DNA from: a virus
Length of the DNA: 64,000 nt
Virus record (IMG/VR): IMGVR_UViG_3300006109_000424
Location: 7,617-71,616 of that record
Direction: 5' to 3' (one strand)
Shown here: in pieces, positions 4,398-30,279 of the stretch
Layout: the number at the start of each line of letters is the position of its first letter
Numbering within the stretch: position 1 is the first letter of the stretch
Made by a program: the position numbers and the translations under genes
Notes under the pieces: model-generated
Told to the model about the DNA's origin: nothing
Database searches by the model: none
The model's input: the letters and a program-made list of their open reading frames with translations, nothing else

Positions 4398-4640
4398 ATG
4401 CCCAAGATCACACTACATACCTTTACCATGGGTGATGTTGAAGACCCGTACTTGTATGCGGCCTTTCCTATATCTGAGTGGCAAAAGACTGAACAAGGCA
4501 AGTGGGTCATGGAACATGCTATAGGCGAAAGTACTTTTTATTGTAATGCAGATGCTAATACCTATGGCGTAAGAGTTGATATTGTAGGCGAGTTATCGGA
4601 TCAAGATTTAACTTATTTTAAATTACGGTGGGGCCAATGA
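4398..4640 (+). CDS. hypothetical protein
   Basis: F.MGDVEDP.LYAA.P...W..TE.G.W; ends TYFKLRW. Confidence 0.75.
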   Translation: MPKITLHTFTMGDVEDPYLYAAFPISEWQKTEQGKWVMEHAIGESTFYCNADANTYGVRVDIVGELSDQDLTYFKLRWGQ

Positions 4641-5617
4641 AAATACTCGTAACCGGTGGCTTGGGTTTCATAGGACATGGCGTAGTCGCACAGTTAGAGT
4701 CTCAAGGTCACGAAGTGGTTGTGGTGGACAATCGCAATGACTATGGTATACTCAGTGCCGACGAATTGGATCCACTCATGGCCGAGCGGCAACAACAATT
4801 CAGCACACATAGAGTATTTGACTACGATATACAAGATCAAGAAGGCATGGCCTGGGTATATAGACACTATCTACCCGAAATAGTCATACACCTAGCCAGC
4901 TTTCCACGTCAAAAAGTAGTGAACGCTCGCCCACAACTGGGTAGTCAGACCATGAGCGAAGGACTACTGAATTTGCTGGAACTAAATGCTCGATATGATG
5001 TGCGTAAATTTGTATATGTGAGTTCCAGCATGGTCTACGGCAACTTCAAAGACACCTACTTTGATGGTGTAGACGAATCACATGACTGTAGACCTTTGGG
5101 ACAGTATGGTATCATGAAGCTGGCCGGCGAATGGTTAGTTGAAGATTATGCCCGCAGGACTGGCATGGAATATACCGTTCTAAGACCCAGTGCTGTATAC
5201 GGACCCAGAGATGTTGAAGATCGTGTGGTATCTAAATTTTTCTTGGTTGCAATGCGTGGTGGCATCATACAGGTCAACGGTGAGCATGAAAGTCTAGATT
5301 TTACTTACGTGTCCGATGTAGTGGACGGCATAGTGCAAGCAACTGTAAGCGATTGCACCAACCATCAGATCTTCAACATCACTCGCGGATCTGCAAGAAC
5401 CTTGTTGGAAGCAGCAAAATTGGCAGTCAGCATTGCCGGTTCGGGTAGTATACAGATCAACGAACCTGACGGAAATTTTCCCAGTCGAGGTCAATTAAAT
5501 ATACAACAGGCCCGGACAGCGTTTGGATTCAATCCCAAAATTGATATAGAACAAGGCTTTGAAAAATACTATGAATGGCTTAAAAATAGCATTTACTGGA
5601 CTAAAAAAACAGTATAA
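4637..5617 (+). CDS. NAD-dependent NDP-sugar epimerase/dehydratase (extended SDR)
   Basis: ILVTGGLGFIG, HLAS, SSSMVYG, YGIMK (YxxxK), VYGP, DFTYVSDV; ATGA overlap start. Confidence 0.92.
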   Translation: MKILVTGGLGFIGHGVVAQLESQGHEVVVVDNRNDYGILSADELDPLMAERQQQFSTHRVFDYDIQDQEGMAWVYRHYLPEIVIHLASFPRQKVVNARPQLGSQTMSEGLLNLLELNARYDVRKFVYVSSSMVYGNFKDTYFDGVDESHDCRPLGQYGIMKLAGEWLVEDYARRTGMEYTVLRPSAVYGPRDVEDRVVSKFFLVAMRGGIIQVNGEHESLDFTYVSDVVDGIVQATVSDCTNHQIFNITRGSARTLLEAAKLAVSIAGSGSIQINEPDGNFPSRGQLNIQQARTAFGFNPKIDIEQGFEKYYEWLKNSIYWTKKTV

Positions 5618-6647
5618 CAATCTGCGCACCGAAATACTAGATGTCACCGATGAAGTGTTGCGTTCCGGTGAGCTCATGTCTGGAAACTATACAGCCGAAT
5701 TTGAGAACTGGCTGTCCCGACGCAATCATAGCAAATATGCCGTTACTTGTCACTCGGGCACACAGGCCTTGGAAATCATAGCCGAGTACTATCGTATGCA
5801 GGCCACAGCCACACCGCCCAGAGTAGTGGTGCCAGCCATGACCTATGTGGCCACAGCCAATGCTTTCATACGTGCTGGATGGGAAATTTATATTGCCGAC
5901 ACTGATGCCAACGGTCTATTAGATAAAAACAAAGTACCTCATGATCTCAGCGTGCAGGCCACAGTACTGGTTGGACTCTACGGAGCTGCTGTCAATGCTG
6001 ATCGATTCTGGGGTACCGATCTTGTGATCGAAGATGGGGCACAGCACTGGCTCAGCAACAAATGTAACAGAGTGGGCAATGCTACCGCTATTTCGTTCGA
6101 TCCCATGAAAAATCTCAATGCCTACGGCAATGGTGGTGCTGTGGTCACTGATGATCTGGACCTGTTAGAATATGCTAGAGAATGGAGCAATAACGGAAAA
6201 CCCACGCATGCCAATATAGGAACCAACAGCAGAATGAGCGAAGTAGATTGCGCACAAATGTTGGTCAAAACTGGCCACATCGATGCCTGGCAGGAACGTC
6301 GGAGAAATATCAGTTTATACTGGTTGGGACGATTAAAAAATACCGGAATCAGAAGTTTGATTAGTCCACAGAATTTTGAAACACATGCTTACCATAAATT
6401 TGTTATTGATGTGAATCAGCGAGACATCCTACAGAGGAATTTAGAAATAAAAGGAATTGAAACCAGGATTCATTACAAACAACCACTTCACGAATTAACA
6501 GCTTATGCAGATTTTGCCGGACCTGATATACTCAGTGTGGCCAGTGCATTGAGTCGGCGTGTGTTGAGTCTGCCCATTTATCCAGAATTAACTGACCTGG
6601 AAGTAGAATATATTATTGATTCGGTACTAGATTCTGCTTTATCATAG
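5571..6647 (+). CDS. DegT/DnrJ/EryC1/StrS PLP-dependent sugar aminotransferase
   Basis: SGTQAL, TYVATANA, IEDGAQ, SFDPMKNLNAYGNGG (PLP Lys), NSRMSE, LSLPIYP. Confidence 0.92.
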   Translation: MNGLKIAFTGLKKQYNNLRTEILDVTDEVLRSGELMSGNYTAEFENWLSRRNHSKYAVTCHSGTQALEIIAEYYRMQATATPPRVVVPAMTYVATANAFIRAGWEIYIADTDANGLLDKNKVPHDLSVQATVLVGLYGAAVNADRFWGTDLVIEDGAQHWLSNKCNRVGNATAISFDPMKNLNAYGNGGAVVTDDLDLLEYAREWSNNGKPTHANIGTNSRMSEVDCAQMLVKTGHIDAWQERRRNISLYWLGRLKNTGIRSLISPQNFETHAYHKFVIDVNQRDILQRNLEIKGIETRIHYKQPLHELTAYADFAGPDILSVASALSRRVLSLPIYPELTDLEVEYIIDSVLDSALS

Positions 6648-9396
6648 CATAAGTGGCCAACCAGGCCCAGTCGTAACTTTTCCGTAATTCAGTAAAATCA
6701 CCGCCCACTGTGTCATAATATTCCACAGCGTCCTGGGCGCCGCGTTGGCTCCATTTTTCTTGGGTATTATCTTGTTCTAGCCATTGACGTAATCTATATT
6801 CATTTTCGACATCGGGCAATGAATGTCTTAATTTAATACATTCTCTAAATGCTGTACGCCAACAGGTCCAAGCATCATAATGATAATTGGCAGTTCCACT
6901 CAATATAGGAACAACTTCGTGCGCCTGATCAAGCGTAAAGTCCAAGCCCGGAGCGGTATTTTCCAATACCAATTTTTTGTTGTAGGCAATAATGGCCTGA
7001 TGTCCATAGGTCAATTCATTTACTGGATTACGAGCATGAAAAATATAATGTTTAGGTTCCTGCAATCTATCAGGTTGCCAAGACCAATCAAAATCGGAAT
7101 TGGTTTCTAGCTTGGCAAACACAGCAAAAAACCAAGGTGTGGTGCTTAATTCAGCTGCGGCTCGGTATGCGGCTACACGTCCATTTACACCCGAACTGCG
7201 ATGTATTTTATTTTGATCAGATGTATGTGGTAACTGTAACCAATTTATTTCAGCAATGGGCTCGCCATTATCAATAAAAACAATATCCAGTAATTCGTCC
7301 GTAATTAAATGACGTTGACGACGATCAATATTGGCATAATCATATAATTGAGTTCGAATATATGGTACAGCCACCTTGGGAACAATAACACTTGTAGCAC
7401 CTTTTGATAAAGGCACGATGGTTTTGGTCTTTTCTCGCCATAATGGTACCGCAGGAATTTCATTTAATTCCTTTAATTCTTTTGTGGTGAAAATGGCCAA
7501 TGGTCCTGCAAAATCCATTTCTTTTACAGCCGCAACCTGTGTATCATTTGTGTGTTGAACAACCGGTAAAGGACGTCGTGGCACTGACCGATCCATGTAA
7601 TTGATATCATACCAATCCAATAATTGAATCTTTTCTGCACGATAACGGAATGTGGGCACATGCATAAAGAAAGTATCACCGAATTTCTGCCCGTCGCTGG
7701 GAAATACATGCAACATTCCGGCCTGCCATATTTCAGGATGCCAGCTAAAATCAAAATTGGTATAGTCACAAATGCTGGAGCAGATCCAAACAAATTCATA
7801 TTCGCTGGGTATATTTTTAACCAATCTGCGTAGGGTATCCAAATAATTGTCAAAATAGCGCACAGTTTTAGTGGTATTTTCTATTTGCCCAGCGTATCCA
7901 TCCAAATGATCTATTTCGTAAATGGCCGTGGCTACTCGTTCTGTGCGTATTCGTATTTGATCAATGTATTTGATTTCGGTGGCACCGGGCACATGATACT
8001 GTGGTCCACCGGTGCGTTGATGTTGGGTACCAAATTGATAAATGTAAGGTTGTTCCGTGGCGTCAGGATGCCAGGTCCAATCAAATGATTCCACATCTGC
8101 ATGTTCTGGAATAACCCAACAGGAATCTTTGGCAATCTTTTGCGCCCGTGGTTCAGTAATGTATTTGCGTTCGGTAGCACCGGGCACAGTATAAATGGGA
8201 CCACCAGTTTTTTGCCATTGTGTGCCAAATTCGTAAATGAATGCTTGTTCCGTGGCATCCGGAGTCCAGCTAAAATCAAAACTGTTGACATCAATGCCAG
8301 TAGGTACGGTCCAATTGCGATCTGTGGGCAACATGCGAGCTATTTGTGCAGTAACATACTTTATCTCGGTGGCACCCGGTACGGTGTATGTAGGGCCACC
8401 AGCACGATTCCATTGTGTAGCAAATTGGTAGATATAAGGAGTATCTCTACTATCTGGATGCCAAGTAAAGTCAAATGCCTCTAGATTAGTATTTTCTGGA
8501 ATAGTCCATAAATCGTCTATTTTAATACGCTGTGCTCTAGGCGCACTAACATATTTTACTTCCGTTGCTCCGGGTATTATATATTGTGGCCCACCCGTAG
8601 CTTGATGTTGTGTGCCAAACTGATATATGTATGGAGGATCTCCTGGGTCCGGACGCCAAGTATAATCTATATTATCAATATTATCTGGTACAACCCAATT
8701 TGTCTTATTTTCTTTTAATTCAGCTCTAGGATAAGACATATATTTTATTTCAGTGGCACCCAATACCGTATATTTAACTGTGGGCATTATTTCTGCTCGA
8801 TGCCATTGATTACCAAATATGTAAATATAAGGTGGATCTCCGGGATCCGGAACCCAAGAATAATCAAAGTTGCAGTCAACTAATATATCCCAATTGCTGT
8901 CTTTATTTTCTTTTAATTCAGCTCTAGGAGTAAAAATATACTTTATTTCGGTTGCACCAGGAATATTATATTCTACTGTGGGCATACGATTTGCTGGATA
9001 CCATTGATTTCCAAACACATAACGATAGGGCGGATCAAATGGATTGGGTGCCCAAGTATAATCAAAGATAATATCGTCTTTTAATTGAATATAATTATTA
9101 CGATTATCTCGATTTGGGATTATATTTTTGTGAAACCGATATTGTATTTCAGGATTATTTTTAGGAACTAAAAAAGTACCCGAATATTCGTGATGCTGAC
9201 TGGGCCAAGTGTGAGTATATTCACTTTCCCATGGCACAGGTTCAAATAAAAAATCAAACCCGGTATAGTCCGATAAGTATGTTATCCACCAAAAATACCT
9301 GGTAGCGCAAGATTTTTTTGCATGTTCGATATCCTGTGCTGGTCGCTCATGTGGGAAAAGATTGGGTTTGACACCAGAATAAAATACATCAAACAT
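6613..9396 (-). CDS. 927-aa protein: six ~65-aa tandem repeats plus C-terminal glycosyltransferase-like domain
   Basis: Repeat FDx(T/S)WxPD..PYIYxFGxQ...GGPxYxVPGATExKY; C-terminus aligns by eye with 27495-28433 (GVxG..AA..AAA, WRxxFRExxK). Confidence 0.75.
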   Translation of the reverse strand: MFDVFYSGVKPNLFPHERPAQDIEHAKKSCATRYFWWITYLSDYTGFDFLFEPVPWESEYTHTWPSQHHEYSGTFLVPKNNPEIQYRFHKNIIPNRDNRNNYIQLKDDIIFDYTWAPNPFDPPYRYVFGNQWYPANRMPTVEYNIPGATEIKYIFTPRAELKENKDSNWDILVDCNFDYSWVPDPGDPPYIYIFGNQWHRAEIMPTVKYTVLGATEIKYMSYPRAELKENKTNWVVPDNIDNIDYTWRPDPGDPPYIYQFGTQHQATGGPQYIIPGATEVKYVSAPRAQRIKIDDLWTIPENTNLEAFDFTWHPDSRDTPYIYQFATQWNRAGGPTYTVPGATEIKYVTAQIARMLPTDRNWTVPTGIDVNSFDFSWTPDATEQAFIYEFGTQWQKTGGPIYTVPGATERKYITEPRAQKIAKDSCWVIPEHADVESFDWTWHPDATEQPYIYQFGTQHQRTGGPQYHVPGATEIKYIDQIRIRTERVATAIYEIDHLDGYAGQIENTTKTVRYFDNYLDTLRRLVKNIPSEYEFVWICSSICDYTNFDFSWHPEIWQAGMLHVFPSDGQKFGDTFFMHVPTFRYRAEKIQLLDWYDINYMDRSVPRRPLPVVQHTNDTQVAAVKEMDFAGPLAIFTTKELKELNEIPAVPLWREKTKTIVPLSKGATSVIVPKVAVPYIRTQLYDYANIDRRQRHLITDELLDIVFIDNGEPIAEINWLQLPHTSDQNKIHRSSGVNGRVAAYRAAAELSTTPWFFAVFAKLETNSDFDWSWQPDRLQEPKHYIFHARNPVNELTYGHQAIIAYNKKLVLENTAPGLDFTLDQAHEVVPILSGTANYHYDAWTCWRTAFRECIKLRHSLPDVENEYRLRQWLEQDNTQEKWSQRGAQDAVEYYDTVGGDFTELRKSYDWAWLATYAMIKQNLVPNQ
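7940..9075 (-). repeat. six intragenic ~195-bp coding repeats
   Basis: PGATE(I/V/R)KY (one LGATEIKY) six times; DNA copy TTATTTTCTTTTAATTCAGCTCTAGGA near 8705 and 8903. Confidence 0.85.
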
Positions 9397-9397
9397 A

Positions 9398-10528
9398 ATG
9401 ATCCGTATAGACGAAATTCACGAAAATACCTTTTTTGCTTGGTTGCGAAAAAATAGATTTGGTATGAGAAGTTTTCATATGCATCCTATTGGAGCCAGTA
9501 CGCCCGAATCAATAGTTTGTCAAGGCACACAGTTGGCATGGGAACACAATTATATAACATTTTTCGATGCAGAGCCTATCAATTTGGAGCGATTCCGTCA
9601 GACCTTTGACACTGTACGCTGGGAACTGGCGGCCGATATTCACGAACGGCGCAACGCAAAAAATTTAGGGTATTTTGTAACCAGTGAATATGCCAGCGAA
9701 AATGTTGAAGAACTGTGCAGTATATATGGCTGGCAACCACTATATTATTTCTTTTGGGGCTGGGCTGCTCTGGACTGGTACAGGGGATATGATAGATCTT
9801 TTTTGATACAGCCTGCGGCACAGCGCAAAATTTCCAAGACCTTTCTTTACCCCAATAGAATCATAGGCGGAGCCCGCCGACACAGGTTAGAATTGCTGTA
9901 CTATGTGTTGGGACGAGGACTGACCAACAATTATATCAGTTGCCCGGCTGTTTGCCCGGTAGAAGGTGTTGGCATAGCAGAATTATCGGCACCGCTAGAA
10001 ACAGAATACCCGGGCATCTCGCGGATCCTTGCTGCGCAAGCCCCGCTGAATATGCCGGGCGAGTCAGGTCATCCCATGCATTCATGCTGGCTGAGCCTGT
10101 TTGAACAGGCTGAACAGAGCCTGCTTTATCTGGTGTCAGAAACAGTGGCTACCGGGCGGCGTCAACAGGTCACAGAAAAGACCTTTAAACCCATTGCCCT
10201 GGGTATGCCGTTTGTGATACATGCCTGCGCCGGCACCTTGTCATACCTGCGCGGGTATGGATTCCAGACATTTGGTGATGTTTGGGACGAAAGCTACGAC
10301 AGCATCCAGGATGATCGCGAGCGGGTGCGGGCAATAGCAGATCTGGTCACAGATCTGGATCAGGCAACACCTGAACAAAAACAGGAGTTATGGCAGGCCT
10401 GCTTGCCTGCGATCGAGCACAATCGCCAGCACTTTTACGGTGGGGCATTTGAACGGTTGTTATGGCAAGAAATGACTGGCATGTTGGGTCAAATTGGCCA
10501 GGACAGACCCGCAGAACTGGATCTATGA
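9398..10528 (+). CDS. putative glycosyltransferase (TEK-motif, GT10-like C-terminus), paralog 1
   Basis: LVSETV...VTEKTFKPIALGMPFV...YLRGYGFQTFGDVWDESYD. Confidence 0.6.
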   Translation: MIRIDEIHENTFFAWLRKNRFGMRSFHMHPIGASTPESIVCQGTQLAWEHNYITFFDAEPINLERFRQTFDTVRWELAADIHERRNAKNLGYFVTSEYASENVEELCSIYGWQPLYYFFWGWAALDWYRGYDRSFLIQPAAQRKISKTFLYPNRIIGGARRHRLELLYYVLGRGLTNNYISCPAVCPVEGVGIAELSAPLETEYPGISRILAAQAPLNMPGESGHPMHSCWLSLFEQAEQSLLYLVSETVATGRRQQVTEKTFKPIALGMPFVIHACAGTLSYLRGYGFQTFGDVWDESYDSIQDDRERVRAIADLVTDLDQATPEQKQELWQACLPAIEHNRQHFYGGAFERLLWQEMTGMLGQIGQDRPAELDL

Positions 10529-11601
10529 TCAGAATAGACGAGATATACAATCAGATTTTTGTGCCGGCTGTCAAGGGCCTGGGTGCTGAACACGGAGCAC
10601 ACTGGTTTGACCCGCCGGGCAGTACTGCGTTTGCAGATCTATGTAATCGGCCCAGGGTCTCTATTCCAACGGCACAAAGATACCTGTTTTGGGATCAAGA
10701 ACCGGTGGATCCTGACAGATTCAACAGATTTATGTCTCAATTTCAGGCTGCATACACAGGTCACCATCATGTGATCACCAGCGAATACCGTAGCAAGCCT
10801 GTGGAAACTGTGTCGGCTCAATGGGGCCTGCAGAGTCACTACTACTGGTTTCACGGTTGGGCTGCCCTGGACTGGTACAGGGGATATGATCGTGCTCGAC
10901 TGATTAGACCCGCAGATCAACGTAGAATTGAGCAGACTTTTGTGGCACCCAACAGGATCATAGGTGGTGCTAGACAGCATAGACTGCATGTGTTGTACTG
11001 GATATTTCGAGCAGGTCTTGAACAGAACAACTGGGTCAGCTGTCCGGCTGTGTGTCCTGCTGAGATGACCACCATGGCTGACTTGATTGAGCCCTTGAGC
11101 GGCACGTACCCAGATATTGTGACTGTGTTTGACCGTGTGGCCTTGCCGCTCGACATGCCGGGAGAGTCAGGACACCCTATGACGTCGTGTTGGTTGGATC
11201 TATGGAGTCAGATTGAAACCAGTCTAGTGTATGTGGTAACTGAAACCGTGGCCGACGGTGATCGACAGCACCTGACCGAAAAGATATTTAAACCCATATG
11301 CCAGCAGATTCCGTTTGTTGTGGTGGGCACCGCAGGAGCACTGGCTTACCTGCGCGGCTACGGATTTCGAACATTTGGTGATCTATGGGACGAATCATAT
11401 GATAACGAACCGGACATGGTCAAAAGAATAGCACGAATAGGTGCGCTATTGACTGATTTAAATGGCCTGAGCTGCTCAGAACGACAGGATCTTTATGAGC
11501 AGGCTATACCTGTTGTACGCCATAATTATGAGCATTTTTATTCAGGCGCATTTGAACACATATTGAGTGCAGAATTGGATGCCATGCTGGCGGAATTTTA
11601 A
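10525..11601 (+). CDS. putative glycosyltransferase (TEK-motif), paralog 2
   Basis: Starts MIRIDEI like paralog 1 (ATGA overlap); shared GWAALDWYRGYDR, MPGESGHPM, TEKIFKPI, WDESYD. Confidence 0.6.
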   Translation: MIRIDEIYNQIFVPAVKGLGAEHGAHWFDPPGSTAFADLCNRPRVSIPTAQRYLFWDQEPVDPDRFNRFMSQFQAAYTGHHHVITSEYRSKPVETVSAQWGLQSHYYWFHGWAALDWYRGYDRARLIRPADQRRIEQTFVAPNRIIGGARQHRLHVLYWIFRAGLEQNNWVSCPAVCPAEMTTMADLIEPLSGTYPDIVTVFDRVALPLDMPGESGHPMTSCWLDLWSQIETSLVYVVTETVADGDRQHLTEKIFKPICQQIPFVVVGTAGALAYLRGYGFRTFGDLWDESYDNEPDMVKRIARIGALLTDLNGLSCSERQDLYEQAIPVVRHNYEHFYSGAFEHILSAELDAMLAEF

Positions 11602-11752
11602 AGAAAAGAATGAAAAGAAATGGCGAAATGATTGAAAAGATTTCACATGAAAAGAAATGATAGAAAATTACTTTTTATAGGGGTTCCCAGGCGACTGTCA
11701 AAAATTTTGGCGTCAGACACTGTAAAATCACTGTCTAGCGGGGCCGTATAGC
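11602..11752. repeat. purine-rich repeat tract plus palindromes, function unknown
   Basis: GAAAAGA x4 (11603, 11612, 11634, 11649); ACTGT x3; imperfect palindrome GACTGTCAAAAATTTTGGCGTC. Confidence 0.5.
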
Positions 11753-14611: not shown

Positions 14612-14612
14612 G

Positions 14613-17374: not shown

Positions 17375-17472
17375 TTATAGATAAACGGGTCTCGCTTGCG
17401 CAGTTCTCGCAGCTTTTTACGGTAGCGTATTTCCAATTGAATACGGTTGATTAGGTTTTTAATCCAAGACAT
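17371..17472 (-). CDS. 33-aa basic peptide ending RDPFIYK (not in ORF track)
   Basis: MSWIKNLINRIQLEIRYRKKLRELRKRDPFIYK*; stop overlaps the carbamoyltransferase ATG (ATGA); fills the operon gap. Confidence 0.75.
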   Translation of the reverse strand: MSWIKNLINRIQLEIRYRKKLRELRKRDPFIYK

Positions 17473-22242: not shown

Positions 22243-23569
22243 TGTACCAGTCTGCTAATGTGGGAAATGTCTTGACAAAATCTTTGCTGCGACGGGCATC
22301 GTATTGTTGGTGGAACTGACGAAAATCATTGTGTAGTTTGGGCATATCAAAGGCATCACTGTGTGGAGTTTTGACCACATCTAAATAATCAATCAAGCGT
22401 TGCACATGATTTAGTTCATGCTCGTGCAGGTAGGGATTGCGGTAGTTGCGGTTCCAAAAATCCTGCAACTGATCTCGATACCCAGTACGAAACTCTATAG
22501 GCAATATCAAGGCTGATTGGAAACTGGGGAAACGCAATATATTTAGTGTAAAATTCACACGCTCGCGCCCATACTGTTGCTTGAGTTCCAGCAACTGATA
22601 CAACAAATTGGGCAAGCGTTCTAAACACAGAGCGTTAATGGTGCACATGCAATGTACAGCCTGTATGCTGTCTTGTTCCAACAGTGTTATTACATTGTCC
22701 ATCCATTGCTGATAGTCCAGACCATCACGTATATATTCGGCTTGATCGTCTACGCTTTCCATGCTGGTGTATATTTCCAAATGAGGAATACCTGTGATCC
22801 GATCAACAAACTCTTGTAACTTTTCGGCATCCATGCCCAGGTTGCTGTTGATGGCCAACCGAGTGCTACTACGGCCTCGATTGTCTTTGAACCAATCAAT
22901 CAGCTTCCAGGTCTCGCCCGACATGAGTGGCTCACCGCCAGTGATTCTCAGCTCCTGTAGTGTTTGATGCAGGTCAGTTTCCCACCAGGCAAAGAATGCC
23001 TCCACATAGGGATTGGTTTCTCCAAAACGGTACAGCTGGGCTGAATCGTGTGGGTGCGTAAAATGATTGCGGCCGTCGCTGACAAGATTTGTGTAGGCGC
23101 CGTTGGTTTTGATATCTTTGACCCAGGTACTGGAGAACGCTGGATTGCAGTAGCTGCAAGCAAACTGACAGGTACGATCAAATGCAATTTCGAGTGTGCG
23201 CAGATTGACATCCTGCTCGGCCGGAGTTTGATAGGCCGTATCCAAGGCTTCTAGGGGATAAATTTTACTTTTGTACACACGGTCGCTGACAGCATCTCGA
23301 CCCATGTCTTCAATTTTCCAGCAGTATTCACAACCAGCGGGACGCTCTCCAGCCAACATTTTTGCACGATCCTGTTTCTTTTGTACAGTGTTGTGTATGG
23401 CTCGAGGATTTGTTTTAAGGGCCTCTGTATCTATTGAGTGTGCCGGAGGATGGTGACAACTAGTGGTTTGTCCTGATCCTAACCATATGGTAGCATTGTA
23501 CCACTTTGCAGCACAAAAACTGTCACTTTTGGTGTCTAATACTTGTTGTCGAAATTCTAAATCATTCAT
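22226..23569 (-). CDS. N-terminal twitch-domain radical SAM protein
   Basis: FCAAKW...SCHHP...GCEYCW then CQFACSYC, GGEPL. Confidence 0.9.
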   Translation of the reverse strand: MNDLEFRQQVLDTKSDSFCAAKWYNATIWLGSGQTTSCHHPPAHSIDTEALKTNPRAIHNTVQKKQDRAKMLAGERPAGCEYCWKIEDMGRDAVSDRVYKSKIYPLEALDTAYQTPAEQDVNLRTLEIAFDRTCQFACSYCNPAFSSTWVKDIKTNGAYTNLVSDGRNHFTHPHDSAQLYRFGETNPYVEAFFAWWETDLHQTLQELRITGGEPLMSGETWKLIDWFKDNRGRSSTRLAINSNLGMDAEKLQEFVDRITGIPHLEIYTSMESVDDQAEYIRDGLDYQQWMDNVITLLEQDSIQAVHCMCTINALCLERLPNLLYQLLELKQQYGRERVNFTLNILRFPSFQSALILPIEFRTGYRDQLQDFWNRNYRNPYLHEHELNHVQRLIDYLDVVKTPHSDAFDMPKLHNDFRQFHQQYDARRSKDFVKTFPTLADWYNDLQV

Positions 23570-24185
23570 TGGTCAATTCCAAATTATTTTGTTCTAATAC
23601 TCGACCACACTCAGCCAAAAAATTTTCGTAGTCTGCAGATTTATGCATGGCATTGTACGACGACTGGACCAGGTCCGATGCTACAGTTTCGTAACACAAT
23701 TCCATCTTCATAAAAGTCCTGCACTGGGTATATTCTTCGTGCAACCGAGCAAGTCTTTTTGCCTGATTAGGCAAGTAACCTATGTGTGGTGCAGTTTTGT
23801 CCTGTTGTGCTGGACAATCCTTGGGATTATGCCAGACTTCTGAGCCATAGGCTGTGGCAAAACTGGCCAATTGGGCTACTCGATCTTTTCGATAGATACC
23901 GATTATATAACTGTTGCTGAATAATGAATCAAAATAGCTGTCAGGGGGAATTTGGTCGCACATGAGTTTAACTATACAAGGTTGTGCATTGGCTCGATAT
24001 CGATCATATTCTCTACCTCTCCTGCGGAAATGAAATGCTTCGTCTAAATTTGGGTATCCAGTAATGCGATGCAGAATATTACACAAGGCTGTACTGCCGG
24101 TACGATAATTGGCCAATACAATTATACTTTGATTTTGCGGAAAAGTAAACCTGCACTGTGCCAGTTGGATCTCAAATGTATTCAT
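23562..24185 (-). CDS. Stf0-like sulfotransferase-family protein
   Basis: LANYRTGSTAL P-loop-like; YRKDRVAQLASF...WH; YE motif. Confidence 0.55.
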   Translation of the reverse strand: MNTFEIQLAQCRFTFPQNQSIIVLANYRTGSTALCNILHRITGYPNLDEAFHFRRRGREYDRYRANAQPCIVKLMCDQIPPDSYFDSLFSNSYIIGIYRKDRVAQLASFATAYGSEVWHNPKDCPAQQDKTAPHIGYLPNQAKRLARLHEEYTQCRTFMKMELCYETVASDLVQSSYNAMHKSADYENFLAECGRVLEQNNLELTNE

Positions 24186-25317
24186 TGATAAACTGAAAAA
24201 AACGGTTTGGAAATTCTTTGCGGACTCGAATCCGCATTTCTACCAAGTGTTGTTGATTGTATTTACATACATCCTCGGCAGCCTTTAGGAAACTGGCCAA
24301 ATCTTGATGGCACAAATCTTTCACCACCTGTGCGATGCGCATGATACGGTCTTGGGGATCATCAATTTGATCAAATGATTCGTCGATTAGGTGTCCCCAG
24401 GTGCGGAATCCTAAATTGTGAAAATCTCTATAGTAGCCCTGATTTGCAACAAAAATGGTAGGGTGACCCATGGCTATCGGTTTCCAAGTTTTTTCTGTAC
24501 GGAAACTGTAAGGATATTCAAATACGGTTTCGGTTACCACACTAAAATAGGTGTCAATATACGGGGCAGCTTTGAGATAGATGTCGCCCCATTCGTTGTT
24601 AAACAAGTGATATTTTACAAAAAGATCTTGATCAGTGTTGAGCGCCGGAACTCCAATTTGTGATTGATAACGATCAACTTCATATTGAATTGGTAAATGC
24701 TGCACAGGAAAAACAGTATAATCTTTTGCTCCTAATTCGTTGGGTAACTTAAATGGTCGTAGTTTGAGAGGTCTTGAATCTAAGTTGGTCCACAGGCTTT
24801 GTTCCAGTAAACCCCAATGACAAAACAATTCAAGTAGGAATTTTCTATGCGACCGGCCGCGACCATTAAGAAATAAAAATTTGTAAGGTTTTTGTATCTT
24901 GGAAAATATTTCTCGACCGCAAAACATTTCAACTAAATTTTCTTCAGGGTCTAAAATTTTAGTTAAAAAAATGTCGTACTGTAAGCATGGCCAGGTAGTA
25001 TCCATGTCACCACCGCCGATTAGCAATATCTTTTTGTTGTGCACCAAATCAGCAGTACGTGTGACCTGGTCACAATGTGTTTTCATTGTGTCGGATCCTT
25101 CCATTGGGTTGCTCAGTACTGGTAAGATTGTACCAGCTTCGGCTAATTTGCGTATGCGATCAACGTTGAGATTAAATTGTTCTCTACCGATAAGGTAGAT
25201 AGCACCAGGAATAACATCGTGAGTTGAAAATTCCCAAAATTCTGCGTCTGCATAGGATTTTATTAGATCGTATACTTCGCAAAAGGTATCCAGAACAACT
25301 TTACGATTGGCGAGCAT
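24172..25317 (-). CDS. putative glycosyltransferase (TEK-motif), paralog 4
   Basis: FLFLNGRGRSHR, VVTETV...RTEKTWKPIAMGHP...LGFRTW..LIDESFD. Confidence 0.6.
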   Translation of the reverse strand: MLANRKVVLDTFCEVYDLIKSYADAEFWEFSTHDVIPGAIYLIGREQFNLNVDRIRKLAEAGTILPVLSNPMEGSDTMKTHCDQVTRTADLVHNKKILLIGGGDMDTTWPCLQYDIFLTKILDPEENLVEMFCGREIFSKIQKPYKFLFLNGRGRSHRKFLLELFCHWGLLEQSLWTNLDSRPLKLRPFKLPNELGAKDYTVFPVQHLPIQYEVDRYQSQIGVPALNTDQDLFVKYHLFNNEWGDIYLKAAPYIDTYFSVVTETVFEYPYSFRTEKTWKPIAMGHPTIFVANQGYYRDFHNLGFRTWGHLIDESFDQIDDPQDRIMRIAQVVKDLCHQDLASFLKAAEDVCKYNQQHLVEMRIRVRKEFPNRFFQFINEYI

Positions 25318-27238
25318 AGTACTCACATTCGCGCCACCAAGCGGCCATTTCTGGAAATGTAGTTAAAAAGTCGGTGCCATGTCGCCGGTCGGCTTCTGCA
25401 AAAAAACGATAAAAATCTGCTTTTTGCTGTTTAATGTATATTGGATCTAACTTTTGTCCATCACGCATCCAAGCAATGTCTCTGTCAAGTCGAGAAATTT
25501 CGTAATCTTTGAATCCTTGAAAACGTGTGGCTTCGGTTTCGATCTGACGTATCATCCAGGCCCATAAATGTTCTAACTGTTCTACGTAACTTTCTGGCAA
25601 GATTTGTAGACTTTGCCAGGTGGGTTGCCGTAATACCGGAGTATCAAACCATACACGCTGATAGGTCTTTGAATACAACTTACGCAGGCCTAGTATGCCG
25701 GCAAACAGACTACTGAGATTGGTCACCGATAGATTGTTCATGGTCACAATAAAGGTTATGCTGTTGCGCCCTGGTATTTCTGTTAAGAATTGATTTACAC
25801 GATCCCATAATAAATTAAAATCTAAACCGTTACGGATATATTCAGCCTGTGCCCCCCAAGAATCTATACTAATGTATTGCATGAAATGTTCAATCTGTTC
25901 GCCTTCGCATAGTTGCTTGACATAGCCTTTGTATCGTTGCCACGACTTTTCGTCCACACTAAAGTTGCTGGTCACATTCAAGTGCAGGTCTGGCTTGGGA
26001 TTGGCCAACACATAGTCAAACACACGATAGGTATTTTTGTCCAGCATGGGTTCGCCGCCGGTCATTCTGAAATGTTCTAGCTCTGGATATAGTTGAGGCC
26101 ACCAAGACCAAAATGCATCTACATAGAGATTGTCCTCTCTTACCGGAATTGGTTTACGATCCCCAGTGAAATAACTAGGATCATTGTGTTGAGTGCTAGT
26201 GGGATAAGCGCCAAACTGATCCACTTCCTGTTGCCAACTTGAACTAAATTGAGGGCTACAGTAGCTACATTTAAGATTGCAAGCGTGATTAAAATTAACT
26301 TCAACATAACTAGGTGTAATATCATCGTCCCATTCTCCACTTACAATTTTTCCAAAGTCTTTGGCAGCCCAAGACTCGCCGCTGCGATAGTGTCGATCAC
26401 TTAGTTTGCCGTTGTCTTCCATGGCCCAACAATAATTACATTCACTGGGTCTTTCTCCTTTTAACATCAGCTGTCTTTGAGTTTTTTTATAGGCGGTGTT
26501 ATGCAACCCACTAGGACTACGTTGGATATCTTCTAGTTGAATTTTGTGTAAAGGAGGATGATAGCAGGAATTATTAAGTCCTGTAGTTAAATGTAGACTT
26601 ACCTGTTTCCATTTTGCTAGACACATGCTGGGACTTATTTTGTCCAAGCGTTGTTTCATTATTTCGGCGTCGTTAAGAAATTTACTCTTAAATCCATCTA
26701 CAATTTTATCTCCTGGTACCATTGATAAGTCATGTTCTATGTGTTCGGCGCTGACCTGATCGTATTCAGCAGAATCAATACTGTTTAGTTCTTTTCGCAT
26801 AATTTTGGCAAATTCCGAGTTGTCTGTGTCAATATTAATTATACTAGTAGCACCCAAGGTATCCATTGGATATTCGTTATAGTATCGACGATGATAGGCA
26901 GTGTGAGCTCGAGCATGTTCTAATTTATTAGGCATGTTTTTATTTTTATGCTGATCTGCAAGATACCATTCTCTCTTTAAACTTTTGCCTAAATCTGCTT
27001 GTAGTACAATAATTTCTCTTTGGTTAGGAAATAGTTTTTTAATCAGTGGAACATTTACGCAATGGGTCAGTATTAATTCGCAGTCTGCTAGGTCAGACTG
27101 TGTGGTCAAATATCGATAATCGGGCAATTGATTGGTTAATAAATGATCATAGGTGGTTTGTGTTTTAAAATCCCGTTGGCCGGCTAGATAACGATAATAC
27201 CTATTTCCGCCGGCGCCAGGATAAAATGCAATAACCAT
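25301..27238 (-). CDS. fusion of a sulfotransferase-like N-terminal domain with a twitch-domain radical SAM protein
   Basis: N-terminal AFYPGAGGNR; from about aa 200 MCLAKW...SCYHP...CNYCW, CNLKCSYC, GGEP. Confidence 0.85.
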   Translation of the reverse strand: MVIAFYPGAGGNRYYRYLAGQRDFKTQTTYDHLLTNQLPDYRYLTTQSDLADCELILTHCVNVPLIKKLFPNQREIIVLQADLGKSLKREWYLADQHKNKNMPNKLEHARAHTAYHRRYYNEYPMDTLGATSIINIDTDNSEFAKIMRKELNSIDSAEYDQVSAEHIEHDLSMVPGDKIVDGFKSKFLNDAEIMKQRLDKISPSMCLAKWKQVSLHLTTGLNNSCYHPPLHKIQLEDIQRSPSGLHNTAYKKTQRQLMLKGERPSECNYCWAMEDNGKLSDRHYRSGESWAAKDFGKIVSGEWDDDITPSYVEVNFNHACNLKCSYCSPQFSSSWQQEVDQFGAYPTSTQHNDPSYFTGDRKPIPVREDNLYVDAFWSWWPQLYPELEHFRMTGGEPMLDKNTYRVFDYVLANPKPDLHLNVTSNFSVDEKSWQRYKGYVKQLCEGEQIEHFMQYISIDSWGAQAEYIRNGLDFNLLWDRVNQFLTEIPGRNSITFIVTMNNLSVTNLSSLFAGILGLRKLYSKTYQRVWFDTPVLRQPTWQSLQILPESYVEQLEHLWAWMIRQIETEATRFQGFKDYEISRLDRDIAWMRDGQKLDPIYIKQQKADFYRFFAEADRRHGTDFLTTFPEMAAWWRECEYYARQS

Positions 27239-27245
27239 TTTTACT

Positions 27246-27274
27246 ATTATACACTAATTTGTTAAAAAAATCAA
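27246..27274 (-). promoter_or_regulatory. sigma70-type promoter, leaderless geometry
   Basis: TTGATT-17 bp-TATAAT, 7 nt before ATG 27238. Confidence 0.7.
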
Positions 27275-27517
27275 AAATATTTTAGATCAGAGGACAACAA
27301 TCGCACTGGGCTAATATCAGAATTGGATAATATTGAATTAGATAAATTGTTTGTCGCCCATCTTGAGTGCTCAAGTATTAATACATTCATGACAACTATT
27401 TATGGACTACTTTCAACACCTCAACCAATTAGTGGCCTGGCCCGAGACGGATTTCATTATGGACCCAAAACACATCAACAATTAGCAGAAAAAATTACCA
27501 ACCTTCTTGATTTCTAA
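27266..27517 (+). pseudogene. C-terminal remnant of an SGNH-like hydrolase
   Basis: LARDGFHYGPKTHQQLAEKI (DxxH block); frame opens after TAA at 27263; N-terminal GxS block absent. Confidence 0.5.
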
Positions 27518-28433
27518 TAACATCAATTTCTTTGATCATAACTCCACGATTATGCCAGTTACTACGGTAATGATGTTTAAAAAACTGACTTTCCTCTGGT
27601 CCTAGCATGTTAATTGGTAAATTTAATTGCGTTACTAAATCTTCGGCTACTCTCCCAGCTAATATTTCAGCGTTTGAATCTTTTACTGTAGACCACAGAT
27701 CCGCCAATGCATCAAAGCTCTGTACCTGACGATAGTCCCAAGTTGGAGTGATCATGGTCATGTAAGTGCCCATGCGACTACCCACAATTGCCCAGATACC
27801 ATTGTCCACATCTCGACCCACATTATGCCATATGGTCAAATGATCTAAATTACGATGATGTACACGATCTTGGAATTCGCTAACAGTAGGTCTAACGCCC
27901 TTGTTTAAGCACATCTTGACACCTTCGCGGAATCCAGCTCGCCAGGCTTGAAACTCACTGGCATTGGGGTATGTTGTACTATAGCAATCGTGCATAGCAT
28001 AGTAATTAGGATAAAAACAAAACTCTACATCATTTTCTGCTGTACCGTCGGATGCTTCGTGTGTGCGCATATCGTATATAAACTTTTTAGACCATACGCT
28101 CAAGCCGCCATTGCCGTACATGAGTCCATTGATATAATTACGAGCACGCCAACGATACACACAGGTAGTGTCGACATCGCCGATATTTAATGTAAGATTA
28201 AAAAATTCAGGATTGGGAATATTGTCACCGTCGATGAGCACAAAACGATCGGTTGCACTAGCATTGGCTGCTGCTTTATGTGCTGCATCCGATCCTTTAA
28301 CCCCATCTACACGTTGAGCCCAAGGAATCATATTTTTAATTTTAACCCAGTTTTCTTCTTTGTTGGGTTCATCGTATGATAGGTAAATGCAGTCTAAGTC
28401 TGCTATATCAATTGTGATCACTTCACGCTCCAT
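27495..28433 (-). CDS. putative GT-A-fold glycosyltransferase
   Basis: LSYDEP, GVKGSDAAHKAAA, VLIDGDN (DxD), YGNGG, WRAGFREGVKM. Confidence 0.65.
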   Translation of the reverse strand: MEREVITIDIADLDCIYLSYDEPNKEENWVKIKNMIPWAQRVDGVKGSDAAHKAAANASATDRFVLIDGDNIPNPEFFNLTLNIGDVDTTCVYRWRARNYINGLMYGNGGLSVWSKKFIYDMRTHEASDGTAENDVEFCFYPNYYAMHDCYSTTYPNASEFQAWRAGFREGVKMCLNKGVRPTVSEFQDRVHHRNLDHLTIWHNVGRDVDNGIWAIVGSRMGTYMTMITPTWDYRQVQSFDALADLWSTVKDSNAEILAGRVAEDLVTQLNLPINMLGPEESQFFKHHYRSNWHNRGVMIKEIDVIRNQEGW

Positions 28434-28735
28434 TTAGTATTTGATCCTAAGGCATTTACCACAACAGCAACATCTTGCGGGTGACATGTGGTGCCTATAT
28501 CTCCTGGAACCAACTTATGTACCACTACTGTTTTGATCCGAACTAATATTCCGTTGAGTATGCGGACATTGGCTGGATTATGCCAGGTATCGTAATCGAT
28601 CTCTATATAGTTACCTGGGACCGATTCCATGCTGTAAAATAAAGGCCAGCCCTGATCGTCATAATACAATCTATAGATCGGTGCAGGCGGAGCTGGAACA
28701 GGAGCTAGTGCGTTCCAAAAATCATTTTCAGTCAT
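28418..28735 (-). CDS. hypothetical protein
   Basis: 105 aa, YRLYYD; overlaps both neighbours. Confidence 0.7.
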   Translation of the reverse strand: MTENDFWNALAPVPAPPAPIYRLYYDDQGWPLFYSMESVPGNYIEIDYDTWHNPANVRILNGILVRIKTVVVHKLVPGDIGTTCHPQDVAVVVNALGSNTKWSVK

Positions 28736-29495
28736 ATGCCCATTCCTTGATATGGTAATGTACTAGTCCCCATTGTGCCACAGTGTTGATCCTAAAAGGG
28801 TCATTTTCCCAGACTAATTCATTGGTCCAGTTGTCTGTTATAGTACCAATCATGTGTTGTTTCATGTGTACTATGGTTGGACCTATACCGGCAGGTAAGG
28901 TAACATTTTCAACATTCATAATCACAGCAGCTATGGCATAGACCACGTCAGTTGTGGCCTCTTTGTCTGGAAATTGCAGTAAAGATCGATAACTGTTCCA
29001 ATTTTCAAATATGTTGCGCACCAGTTCAAAAAATTTCATAGCAGTTTCGCTGCGACGCCAATAGGTAATAGCATTGTACACATCCGGTAAGGCATTGTTA
29101 TCAAATATGCGACGATACACCCTTGATTGTCCTGGTTGATCATAAAAATCTCTGCAACCTTGGCTGATCACAACATCTCGAGACTCAAACAGGGTCCACC
29201 AATGATCAATAGGAGTGGCACATATCATATCAGCTTCTAATTTAATAGTTTGCCTATATGGGCTAGCTCTAAAACACTGCCAATCGTTGGCATAACCCCC
29301 TTGGTCACCGTAGGGCAACGGTATCACATGATCAAAAACTGGATCACTGCATTGCTTGGTCGAAATGACAGAGATTTTAGCATCGGGGTGCCATTGTTGT
29401 ATGGATTTAGCCAGCCGTACAGCACAACTCAGGTAATCTACAGATTCTGTATCAACGGCTGGTATTAGATATCCGCGTTCAGCTGTGATTGTCAA
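28728..29495 (-). CDS. putative GT-A (GT8-like) glycosyltransferase
   Basis: DYLSCAVRLAKSI, FDHVI, SPYRQTIKLEADM, TDVVYAIA, HYHIK. Confidence 0.6.
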   Translation of the reverse strand: MTITAERGYLIPAVDTESVDYLSCAVRLAKSIQQWHPDAKISVISTKQCSDPVFDHVIPLPYGDQGGYANDWQCFRASPYRQTIKLEADMICATPIDHWWTLFESRDVVISQGCRDFYDQPGQSRVYRRIFDNNALPDVYNAITYWRRSETAMKFFELVRNIFENWNSYRSLLQFPDKEATTDVVYAIAAVIMNVENVTLPAGIGPTIVHMKQHMIGTITDNWTNELVWENDPFRINTVAQWGLVHYHIKEWAYD

Positions 29496-30279
29496 TGATG
29501 GCCCCTAATTGTGCTTTGCCCATAGCATGAAAATCCTGAGCTAATGTAATCCACTTGGGCTTGCCGTCCTGTGCTACAAAATCCACACGATATTGATCTT
29601 GATCAATTTGTGCCAACTGTTGATCATGTGTCACCGTGGCCAACCCCCACGGAATACTATTGTGATTCAAAGTGTGTCCGTTTACTACACCTAATGCAAT
29701 GCTGAGTGCAAAATCATTGCGATAAGTGGCACGACCGATTGAGTACAAAGCCCGGTAGTGATCCCAGTTGTCTCGTATCATCTGCATGGTTTCAAATATT
29801 AATTGAGCCTGTTGACCACGTCGAAACATCATCACCGTGGCCCACCACATGGGCATGCGGTATTGGCCAAAGCTGTCATGCTCGTCAAAGTTTGGATGTC
29901 CGGTTACATCATAGGCCCGATTGTGTACTACAAACTCACAGTCGTTGTCTAAAATAGAAAGAAGCTGATCTGTTGCAACCACATAGTCGGCATCTAACAC
30001 TAGTGTCTGTGACCACGGCGACAGGGTGTAGGCATCTACTCTGTTGCCGTTAAACCAGGTGACTAACTCTGCCAAATCCTCAAATTTTCTTGTGTAGCTT
30101 CCTGTTGGTTTGGCCAGTATTATCTGTTCAAAACGATAATGTGGCGGAACTGCACGATCAGTAACTACGGCCACTGGTAAGTCGAGATGCCTGCGAATAT
30201 TTTGCGCTGACCAGTTGGCCATGGCAAGATAATCAATGTGTTCGTTGTTGAAGGCAAAAATTAAAACGCCAGTGGTCAT
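29479..30279 (-). CDS. putative GT-A (GT8-like) glycosyltransferase, paralog of 28728
   Basis: DYLAMA, SPWSQTLVLDADY (DxD), RNDFALSIA, HAMGK. Confidence 0.65.
   Translation of the reverse strand: MTTGVLIFAFNNEHIDYLAMANWSAQNIRRHLDLPVAVVTDRAVPPHYRFEQIILAKPTGSYTRKFEDLAELVTWFNGNRVDAYTLSPWSQTLVLDADYVVATDQLLSILDNDCEFVVHNRAYDVTGHPNFDEHDSFGQYRMPMWWATVMMFRRGQQAQLIFETMQMIRDNWDHYRALYSIGRATYRNDFALSIALGVVNGHTLNHNSIPWGLATVTHDQQLAQIDQDQYRVDFVAQDGKPKWITLAQDFHAMGKAQLGAIIDNHS

Follow-up and report, generated by a model that had tools for sequence, protein, structure and literature searches.

A probable glycan assembly-and-tailoring locus with seven radical SAM genes beside the tail-fibre genes of an uncultivated freshwater jumbo myovirus

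Introduction

Giant viruses and a few mycobacteriophages are known to glycosylate their virions with enzymes of their own, the latter on capsid or tail proteins. In mimivirus, L136 and L138 have roles in the fibril glycans. To our knowledge, neither these systems nor that of the chlorovirus PBCV-1 include a radical S-adenosylmethionine (SAM) enzyme, a carbamoyltransferase or a sulfotransferase, and we know of no virus-encoded virion glycosylation that involves radical SAM chemistry. Here we describe an island of sugar-building and sugar-editing enzymes that is located just after tail-fibre genes, at about 4.4–30.6 kb of a 64-kb stretch of DNA (hereafter the window) from the 71.6-kb IMG/VR record IMGVR_UViG_3300006109_000424. 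The island, which comprises seven radical SAM genes, most probably builds a tailored glycan. The most fitting term for it is a phage locus for glycan assembly and tailoring that is attached to the tail-fibre genes, and no description of it was found in the literature searched.

The window is a fragment of the genome of an uncultivated freshwater jumbo myovirus. The signs of a T4-like large myovirus are PHROG matches to baseplate wedge and hub proteins, a late sigma factor and an SbcD-like nuclease; the baseplate wedge protein is 33–35% identical to its counterparts in the jumbo phages Phosso, Atu_ph07 and GAP32, and relatives with terminal repeats are 337–344 kb long. All or part of the stretch is present in 24 DNA sequencing runs from freshwater or lake metagenomes, and no RNA sequencing run holding it was found among the runs listed. 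The genome represented by the record is only 21% complete (CheckV); whole-genome absence tests were made in four near-complete relatives, with 14 genomes as controls.

Conservation and organisation of the island

The core GT-A-fold glycosyltransferase (27495-28433; genes are designated by their coordinates in the window, or by the first of them) was used as the query, which found homologues in 223 viral contigs, and gene order and gene presence were counted in 80 retrieved loci. In all 80 of them the genes follow one another on one strand in the same order, namely fibre genes, three GT-A genes, a series of radical SAM and GT-B genes, 17451 and the carbamoyltransferase gene. The recurring order is 33025/31704/30651/30276/29479/28728/28418/27495/(variable GT-B)/25301/24172/22226/20986/19784/18496/17451/15869, with the core genes found in 77–80 of the loci. 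A small number of fixed points accept insertions of extra genes, which are TEK-type, short-chain dehydrogenase/reductase (SDR) or sulfotransferase-like, and in most relatives the first radical SAM or glycosyltransferase gene begins right at the stop codon of the 27495 homologue. The far, epimerase-DegT end of the island was compared in five larger relatives, all of which retain the 80-aa open reading frame (ORF), the SDR, DegT, repeat-protein and TEK genes and the carbamoyltransferase gene; the middle of the island (12937, 13934 and 14613) is variable among them. The island is a conserved unit and not a chance assembly. The scattering of genes without a conserved core that an earlier note on this DNA had named as a refutation was not seen.

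Counted by the longest-ORF rule, 16 of the 21 same-strand junctions of the island overlap, two have gaps of 1–3 nt and three have gaps of 76–256 nt. The minus-strand part begins 3 nt past the Ser/Thr-rich protein 30651-31631, beyond which lie the fibre gene and the gene of a 4808-aa protein; the linkage by overlapping stop and start codons and the position directly after the tail-fibre genes were thus noted correctly before. No island protein reaches the hydropathy required for a membrane helix (maximum 1.54, none ≥1.6).

Ten island genes have no family match, and neither Pfam (E≤5) nor PHROGs yielded a match for 17451, 13934, 30276, 28418, 6613 or the N-terminus of 25301. Gene 17451-18539 is 56–76% identical to its counterparts wherever the flank of the relatives extends to it. 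The G+C content is about 0.50 over positions 10000–18000 of the window and 0.39–0.45 in the flanking parts of the island; this rise coincides with the part that varies among relatives, which suggests mosaic acquisition.

Radical SAM enzymes

In each of the seven radical SAM proteins the SPASM-type Fe-S domain is N-terminal to the core, the reverse of the usual order. Six of them pass the 170-bit cut-off of NCBIfam NF033640 (N_Twi_rSAM, twitch domain-containing radical SAM protein), with 221–372 bits, while the seventh (12937-13989) remains below it at 29 bits, belongs to the variable part of the island and has an orthologue in one of the five larger relatives. The CX3CX2C motif (C138, C142 and C145) and the N-terminal cysteines C31, C50, C91 and C94 are invariant in all six aligned paralogues. 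In score level and in these cysteines the paralogues agree with NF033640, a family that has itself no assigned reaction; what distinguishes the island is that the family forms a conserved series of specialised paralogues. They are only 21–28% identical to one another, yet 47–91% identical to the genes at the same position in relatives, which indicates that the duplications are old and that each copy has been kept. For 20986-22242, 8000 candidates were scored, of which 6890 are relatives at E≤1e-5.

With a profile built from the six paralogues, the solved relatives found are all distant, namely 8vpo (an unnamed radical SAM enzyme), viperin, SkfB, BlsE, MoaA and YydG, which do not fix a reaction. 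The protein 25301-27238 is 35% identical to ORF349 of Ralstonia phage RsoM2USA. Its N-terminal domain of about 200 aa has no family or PDB match; it starts with FYPGAGGNRY, and the same motif is encoded after the 27495 homologue in four relatives (L009, L034, L073 and L075). No paper on the function of N-terminal-twitch (N-twitch) radical SAM enzymes, or on jumbo phages with radical SAM and glycosyltransferase genes, was found in the literature searched. Nishimura et al. noted 12 radical SAM genes in the genome of a marine T4-like phage, and in the part of their paper concerned with these genes they are discussed only as Fe-S clients (PMC5332604).

Glycosyltransferase-like proteins

The core glycosyltransferase 27495-28433 is the most conserved protein of the island. 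Its AlphaFold2 model is of medium quality (predicted local distance difference test, pLDDT, 72.7); the Foldseek matches include BcsA (6.6e-4) and the PBCV-1 capsid glycosyltransferase 2p6w (8.4e-4, probability 1.00), and GT-A types dominate the list. The protein is predicted from this model to have a GT-A fold, with a DxD motif; the match to Pfam GT2_3 is 15.9 bits, under the cut-off of 27. The paralogous proteins 29479 and 28728 (hhalign 98.8%, E 1e-16) have no Pfam match, and a profile search of PDB sequences gave glycogenin at E 0.94. Neighbours of 29479 in the ESM Atlas are named nucleotide-diphospho-sugar transferase, with PF03407/PF01501 clusters at 0.95–0.96, which is taken as a lead only. 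The fourth protein of this kind, 6613-9396, comprises about 7–8 tandem repeats of about 65 aa (FDFxWxPD...PYIYxFG...VPGATEIKY), and the D-G-D motif is replaced in its C-terminal domain. Its relatives align from query residue 112, 176, 362, 369 or 414 onward, so that the number of repeats appears to vary. The repeats look like a duplicated central segment of the 27495-type GT-A-like domain.

The four TEK genes (9398, 10462, 11753 and 24172) align as a single family in which T-E-K is invariant. In the model of 24172-25326 (pLDDT 89.7), all 50 VIA-align matches listed (Z 8.9–12.2) are GT-B-type sugar transferases and their relatives, and a GT-B fold is predicted accordingly for this protein. The closest matches are tied: the fucosyltransferase FucT (5zoi) and FUT9 score Z 10.9 (root-mean-square deviation 4.1–4.6), within about one Z unit of many GT-B families, and the T4 alpha- and beta-glucosyltransferases score 11.0 and 11.7. 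A library of viral structures yielded uncharacterised proteins of uncultured phages and giant-virus glycosyltransferases, among them two mimivirus entries, L138 and one of GT10 (E 7e-4 to 9e-4). The TEK motif may resemble the GT10 motif; by sequence, no match to Glyco_transf_10 was found, with only chance-level Pfam matches at E≤5. The family has 3063 database relatives, the best 120 of which carry no Pfam domain. When the TEK and GT-A alignments were used as profiles to search the PDB sequences, no usable match resulted.

Predicted sugar-nucleotide and capping enzymes

The closest solved structure to the SDR 4628-5617 is UDP-glucose 4-epimerase (4zrm, E 9.6e-35). The adjoining DegT protein has a full-length Pfam match (188.7 bits, profile positions 4–359 of 360) and is 58–85% identical to its homologues in the five larger relatives. 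Its nearest solved relatives, scyllo-inositol transaminase 7b0d (1e-42), QdtB (7.5e-41), WbpE and NtdA, suggest by similarity a C3-type or cyclitol aminotransferase.

In the carbamoyltransferase 15869-17374, Carbam_trans_N and Carbam_trans_C both pass their Pfam cut-offs (120.5 against 24 and 163.8 against 27 bits), the N-domain match being limited to profile positions 128–345. It was rejected as NodU itself, with 129.4 bits against the 1000-bit cut-off of the equivalog NF041651. One carbamoyltransferase of these Pfam families, from a phage, produces 5-carbamoyloxymethylcytosine; according to the sections of that study dealing with the pathway, the enzyme needs a thymidylate-synthase-type hydroxymethylase, and such enzymes adjoin glycosyltransferases in unmodified contigs (PMC8670742). 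A gene of the thymidylate-synthase family PF00303 was found in none of the four near-complete relatives, with a positive control in 10 of 14 genomes; Tet_JBP was likewise found in none of the four, but its control was positive nowhere, which makes this result uninformative.

The Stf0 match of 23562-24185 is partial (profile positions 105–152 of 244), its best PDB match is Stf0 at E 0.2, and the gene was matched in only seven of the 80 loci. At the position of the SGNH remnant, 4 of the 80 relatives have intact ORFs of 235–246 aa with GDS, GxND and DxxH blocks.

The earlier note had listed an NDP-sugar epimerase, a DegT aminotransferase, about four GT-A-like and four TEK-type genes, seven radical SAM enzymes, an O-carbamoyltransferase, an SGNH remnant, three sulfotransferase-like domains and a small peptide that was not matched to a gene here. 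Family searches agree with this list for the epimerase, the aminotransferase, both halves of the carbamoyltransferase and all seven radical SAM enzymes, the last by Pfam matches. The GT-A group is borne out by the fold and D-G-D motif of 27495, the paralogy of 29479 and 28728 and the homology of the C-terminus of 6613-9396 to 27495; the TEK group by one alignable family and the GT-B fold of the 24172 model; and the remnant, which is real, by the intact genes at the same position. The sulfotransferases were reduced to one, 23562-24185: the reading of 13934-14611 as sulfotransferase-like is unsupported by any significant Pfam, PHROG or PDB match, and that of the N-terminus of 25301-27238 by any Pfam or PDB match.

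Table 1. Features of the island and of the adjoining structural genes, with positions in the window
Position	Strand	Feature	Evidence and occurrence
866-875, 1091-1100, 4386-4395 (+), 27242-27251 (-)		TATAATAGYA copies	All intergenic, pointing at next gene
4398-4640	+	80-aa conserved ORF, first in plus-strand operon	Homologue in 5/5 larger relatives
4628-5617	+	SDR, putative NAD-dependent NDP-sugar epimerase/dehydratase	PF01370 E 2e-41; in 5/5 larger relatives
5559-6647	+	DegT/DnrJ/EryC1 pyridoxal-phosphate sugar aminotransferase, C3-type closest	PF01041 E 2.4e-55
6613-9396	-	927-aa repeat protein, C-terminal domain like 27495-28433	hhalign to 27495: 96.4%, E 1e-9
9398-10528	+	TEK GT-B-like paralogue 1	Invariant T277-E278-K279; no Pfam match
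10462-11601	+	TEK GT-B-like paralogue 2	Family alignment
11753-12940	+	TEK GT-B-like paralogue 3	Family alignment; homologue in 3/5 larger relatives
12937-13989	+	Divergent radical SAM protein with N-terminal SPASM-like domain	SPASM 31.1 bits (residues 31-97), Radical_SAM 117-276
13934-14611	-	225-aa protein, unknown family	No significant Pfam, PHROG or PDB match; in 0/5 larger relatives
14613-15872	-	N-twitch radical SAM protein	NF033640 221 bits; orthologue in 1/5 larger relatives
15869-17374	-	O-carbamoyltransferase, NodU/CmcH/TobZ family	PF16861 E 3.4e-48, PF02543 E 1.4e-34; in 5/5 larger relatives
17451-18539	-	Conserved 362-aa protein, unknown family	No Pfam, PHROGs or ESM Atlas match
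18496-19797	-	N-twitch radical SAM protein	NF033640 279 bits
19784-21067	-	N-twitch radical SAM protein	NF033640 350 bits
20986-22242	-	N-twitch radical SAM protein	NF033640 372 bits
22226-23569	-	N-twitch radical SAM protein	NF033640 306 bits; 34% identical to RsoM2USA ORF349
23562-24185	-	Stf0-like sulfotransferase	PF09037 30.2 bits, cut-off 22
24172-25326	-	TEK paralogue 4, predicted GT-B fold, within radical SAM series	Found in 69/80 loci
25301-27238	-	645-aa protein: unknown N-terminal domain of about 200 aa and N-twitch radical SAM	NF033640 314 bits, residues 202-634
27239-27494		256-bp gap with SGNH-hydrolase remnant (ORF 27323-27517, +) and sigma-70-like site	
27495-28433	-	Core glycosyltransferase, predicted GT-A fold	Invariant D68-G69-D70 in 15 sequences; mean column identity 81%
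28418-28735	-	Conserved 105-aa protein between GT-A genes	Found in 80/80 loci; no family match
28728-29495	-	GT-A-like (GT8/nucleotide-diphospho-sugar transferase-like)	Invariant E87-A88-D89; found in 80/80 loci
29479-30279	-	GT-A-like (GT8/nucleotide-diphospho-sugar transferase-like)	Invariant D96-A97-D98; found in 80/80 loci
30276-30647	-	Conserved 123-aa protein at fibre-island junction	Found in 80/80 loci; no family match
30651-31631	-	326-aa Ser/Thr/Gly/Ala-rich fibre-like protein, candidate acceptor	S+T 31%, G+A 25%; found in 79/80 loci
31704-32975	-	Tail-fibre-like, C-terminal intramolecular-chaperone-type domain	Peptidase_G2 IMC E 0.0052 (below cut-off)
33025-33627	-	200-aa structural-module protein	PHROG 11259 E 5e-68
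33785-48211	-	4808-aa giant structural protein, FG-GAP and CBM5/12 matches	Between baseplate wedge gene and fibre genes

Related gene sets in other phages and in bacteria

A search of 50,697 deposited phage records found the core GT-A only in Ralstonia phage RsoM2USA (39% identity), where GT-A/GT-A/small ORF/GT-A/N-twitch radical SAM/GT-A genes lie directly after the fibre-like ORF355 and an SDR gene is present among the structural genes. The tail-fibre-like protein 31704-32975, which matches PHROG 6427 (E 3e-14) and a tail-fibre PHROG, corresponds in its N-terminus to this ORF355. RsoM2USA ORF350, used as a query, found no relative in the viral contigs. In the portions of the RsoM2USA paper that cover these genes, ORFs 348–353 are left without annotation, and two proteins of the same module are assigned to the virion by mass spectrometry: ORF356 (194 aa), whose position corresponds to 33025-33627 (a match by position, not by sequence), and the giant protein ORF361, in the position of 33785-48211 (PMC8504454).

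In Vibrio phages K566 and K567, four N-twitch radical SAM genes alternate with two GT8 genes and one GT4-like gene. The K566 cluster is located at 161.5–172.8 kb of the record (L001), with PagP-like, LpxC-like, PnuC and nicotinamide phosphoribosyltransferase genes nearby.

Tandem N-twitch radical SAM genes were found in 4 of 400 sampled Bacteroidota genomes, not counting a Haliscomenobacter metagenome-assembled genome (MAG; G006). Two contigs of this MAG (L088 and L089; 148 and 183 kb) contain the same island and fibre genes and are clearly phage contigs of the same clade binned with a bacterial MAG, either as a binning artefact or as a weak host lead toward Saprospiraceae. The three annotated bacterial contexts all contain GDSL/SGNH enzymes and in two cases glycosyltransferases (GT11-like, a GT2 fusion and GT-C); there is one full-length carbamoyltransferase and a partial one at 13 kb, besides methyltransferases, B12-radical SAM enzymes, PhyH-type dioxygenases and a polysaccharide deacetylase. 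The recurrence of glycosyltransferases and sugar tailoring beside N-twitch radical SAM genes in K566 and in Bacteroidota indicates that the radical SAM family is glycan-associated.

Two of the bacterial clusters, L103 (G085:C2, about 1.213–1.233 Mb) and L106 (G289:C8), combine tandem N-twitch radical SAM genes with several PhyH-type dioxygenases, a WelO5-like enzyme, B12-binding radical SAM enzymes, methyltransferases, GDSL and carbamoyltransferase genes, and seem to be separate tailoring clusters, so far uncharacterised. In G085, a protein secreted by the type IX secretion system and carrying an endosialidase-chaperone (S74) domain adjoins the radical SAM cluster. S74-chaperone proteins were rejected as radical SAM partners: only one of 15 copies, distributed over three of four genomes, is adjacent, and the case is anecdotal.

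Promoter-like sites

The motif TATAATAGYA occurs four times in the window against 0.34 expected, and no shuffle reached four. TTGACC or TTGATT is present 17 nt upstream in three of the four copies, and in three copies ATG follows 6–7 nt past TATAAT, suggesting leaderless or near-leaderless transcripts. The copy at 4386-4395 forms the promoter-like site TATAATAGCA ahead of the 80-aa ORF that opens the plus-strand (epimerase) operon, and that at 27242-27251 on the minus strand forms a sigma-70-like TTGATT-N17-TATAAT ahead of 25301-27238, that is, of the radical SAM operon. Two copies lie in the gap at 768-1124 without an annotated ORF directly downstream, and one upstream gene served is unrelated to the island. 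The motif is not conserved: relatives totalling 1.5 Mb contain 13 copies, and most of them lack the gap in front of 25301-27238. The T4-type late promoter TATAAATA has no match in the window; GGTAAATA occurs upstream of two fibre genes, yet it is not enriched (3 matches against 2.4 expected).

Proposed function and alternative explanations

The explanation that we favour, with a confidence somewhat short of an even chance, is that the fibre proteins of the virion are glycosylated step by step in the cytoplasm, with a glycan that is radical-edited, carbamoylated and sulfated. NDP-sugars would be drawn from the host pool, because no sugar nucleotidyltransferase was found in the four near-complete relatives, and part of this pool would be converted to an amino-deoxy sugar by the SDR and the C3-type DegT enzyme. 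The soluble GT-A enzymes (29479, 28728 and 27495) may start the chain directly on the protein, and the GT-B TEK enzymes may extend it. Each conserved N-twitch radical SAM paralogue could then edit a sugar once by radical chemistry, be it an oxidation, an epimerisation, a deoxygenation or a reaction at C-C bonds, while the carbamoyltransferase and the Stf0-like sulfotransferase would cap hydroxyls and, in some relatives, the SGNH enzyme would handle acyl groups. We infer the order of these steps, the identity of the sugars, the chemistry of the radical SAM enzymes and the acceptor, which would be 30651-31631 or its neighbours.

A virion target is favoured because colinearity with the fibre genes is kept in two distant lineages, because the island encodes no membrane proteins and the relatives no sugar nucleotidyltransferases and no priming transferases (PF02397 and PF00953: 0 of 4 near-complete relatives, with controls positive in 9 and 12 of 14 genomes), because the core GT-A fold matches a chlorovirus enzyme that glycosylates the capsid, and because a Ser/Thr-rich protein sits at the junction. 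The earlier note, which had read the locus as building such a glycan most plausibly on the virion proteins next door, is thus well supported in respect of glycan building and tailoring; these proteins are the favoured target, with the acceptor itself a candidate, and the alternative of DNA hypermodification is weakened.

Several observations weigh against a virion target. Adjacency to fibre genes is no proof of the acceptor. Soluble glycosyltransferases also build lipid-linked O-antigens, so that the absence of membrane helices discriminates weakly. TATAATAGYA precedes the radical SAM and epimerase operons and not the structural genes, and the enzymes may therefore be on a different expression schedule from the fibres. 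In K566 the cluster of radical SAM and glycosyltransferase genes is near LpxC- and PagP-like genes, with no recognisable fibre genes nearby. Finally, the proteomics of RsoM2USA, which covered the most abundant bands only, reported no glycosylation in the part of the paper devoted to it (PMC8504454).

Remodelling of the host envelope is the strongest rival, although an unlikely one. The soluble enzymes would act on host lipid-linked lipopolysaccharide, capsule or protein-O-glycan intermediates and alter the surface of the infected cell, for example blocking superinfection or the re-adsorption of progeny to lysing cells. The position of the K566 cluster, at most about 5 kb from the PagP- and LpxC-like genes, is consistent with this, as are the GT-C membrane transferase, polysaccharide deacetylase and GDSL enzymes of the bacterial clusters, which are typical of envelope glycans, the common solubility of O-antigen glycosyltransferases, and the sigma-70-like promoter before two island operons, which fits early expression. 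However, this promoter is specific to the window, and in the 80 loci and in RsoM2USA the island genes run colinear with the fibre genes, for the most part in translational coupling. The lack of a priming transferase in the relatives and of membrane helices in the island also argues against it, the flippase, polymerase and ligase families not having been searched. A lipid-carrier locus for O-antigen or capsule would require a priming phosphoglycosyltransferase, a flippase or polymerase and membrane proteins, for which host enzymes could substitute.

Direct maturation of the fibre proteins, in which the radical SAM enzymes would edit amino-acid residues in the manner of maturases of ribosomally synthesised and post-translationally modified peptides (epimerisation, cross-links, hydroxyl or alkyl edits) and the glycosyltransferases would act separately, is improbable. 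SPASM/twitch radical SAM enzymes are chiefly known for maturing peptides and proteins, and SkfB and YydG are among the relatives found by the six-paralogue profile; that profile also finds BlsE, MoaA and viperin, which act on sugars or nucleotides. The G085 cluster, with two N-twitch radical SAM enzymes, PhyH-type dioxygenases, a WelO5-like enzyme and B12-radical SAM enzymes, adjoins a secreted protein whose S74 domain is the same type of C-terminal chaperone as in phage fibres, but such proteins are common in these genomes and all other copies lie elsewhere. Moreover, three phage lineages have radical SAM and glycosyltransferase genes in alternation, neither a recognition domain nor a gene resembling a leader peptide was seen, and the 0–1 cysteines of the fibre proteins rule out thioether chemistry.

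A soluble aminoglycoside-like or oligosaccharide metabolite, made during infection and acting on the host or on competitors, has a distinctly low probability. The similarity of DegT to glutamine-scyllo-inositol transaminase and the combination of twitch-type radical SAM, GT-B and TobZ/NodU-family carbamoyltransferase proteins recall aminoglycoside pathways, in which we take BtrN, NeoN and TobZ to be the counterparts of the island enzymes. Against this, the island genes (ten of which have no family match) include no recognisable cyclitol synthase, exporter or self-resistance gene, the array is tightly colinear with structural genes, and the many transferases fit a polymeric or protein-linked glycan better. 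DNA hypermodification, in which the transferases and the carbamoyltransferase would decorate a modified base in phage DNA, is the least credible explanation: the T4 glucosyltransferases among the tied matches of the TEK model and the cytosine-modifying carbamoyltransferase speak for it, but the relatives lack a PF00303 gene and the island sits in the structural and not in the replication module.

Two bolder versions may be considered beside the favoured glycosylation of fibre proteins. In one, which is speculative and probably not correct as a whole but still better placed than any of the rivals above, the N-twitch radical SAM enzymes form a novel class that edits carbohydrates and writes a hypervariable glycan code on tail fibres. 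The other, a free aminoglycoside-like oligosaccharide of radical-edited, carbamoylated and sulfated amino sugars that serves as a chemical weapon or signal during a long infection, is highly doubtful and the less likely of the two; if true, it would mean that a lytic jumbo phage carries a genuine secondary-metabolite pathway.

The island ties thousands of uncharacterised enzymes (the relatives of one radical SAM protein and of the GT-B family) to a defined, conserved context. This context offers a testable entry to the reaction of the NF033640 enzymes and to the question of whether glycans serve phages to diversify or shield their receptor-binding fibres. The variable middle of the island resembles O-antigen-like diversification, here on the side of the virus.

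Comparison with known systems

With phage DNA hypermodification, such as the glucosylated hydroxymethylcytosine of T4 and 5-carbamoyloxymethylcytosine, the island shares GT-B folds and a carbamoyltransferase of the same Pfam families; it differs in its location among tail genes and in that the hydroxymethylase partner was not found in any of the four near-complete relatives. The aminoglycoside and Nod-factor toolkits have several enzyme classes in common with it, namely a two-domain carbamoyltransferase, an Stf0-like sulfotransferase, a DegT protein near scyllo-inositol transaminase and twitch-type radical SAM enzymes. In contrast to these toolkits, the carbamoyltransferase of the island is not NodU, neither a cyclitol synthase nor a synthase of chitin oligomers was recognised, the twitch domain is at the N-terminus instead of the C-terminus, and the genes belong to a phage structural module.

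The island also has a likeness to the virion-glycosylation systems. The model of the core GT-A matches structures of the PBCV-1 protein A64R (E 8.4e-4, probability 1.00), and L138 and a GT10 entry of mimivirus are among the matches of the TEK fold. PBCV-1, the mimivirus fibril cluster and the mycobacteriophage systems likewise combine the virus's own soluble glycosyltransferases with sugar-modifying enzymes such as an aminotransferase and an SDR. The island differs from all of them, as far as these systems are known, in its seven radical SAM genes and in its position after the tail fibres of a jumbo myovirus.

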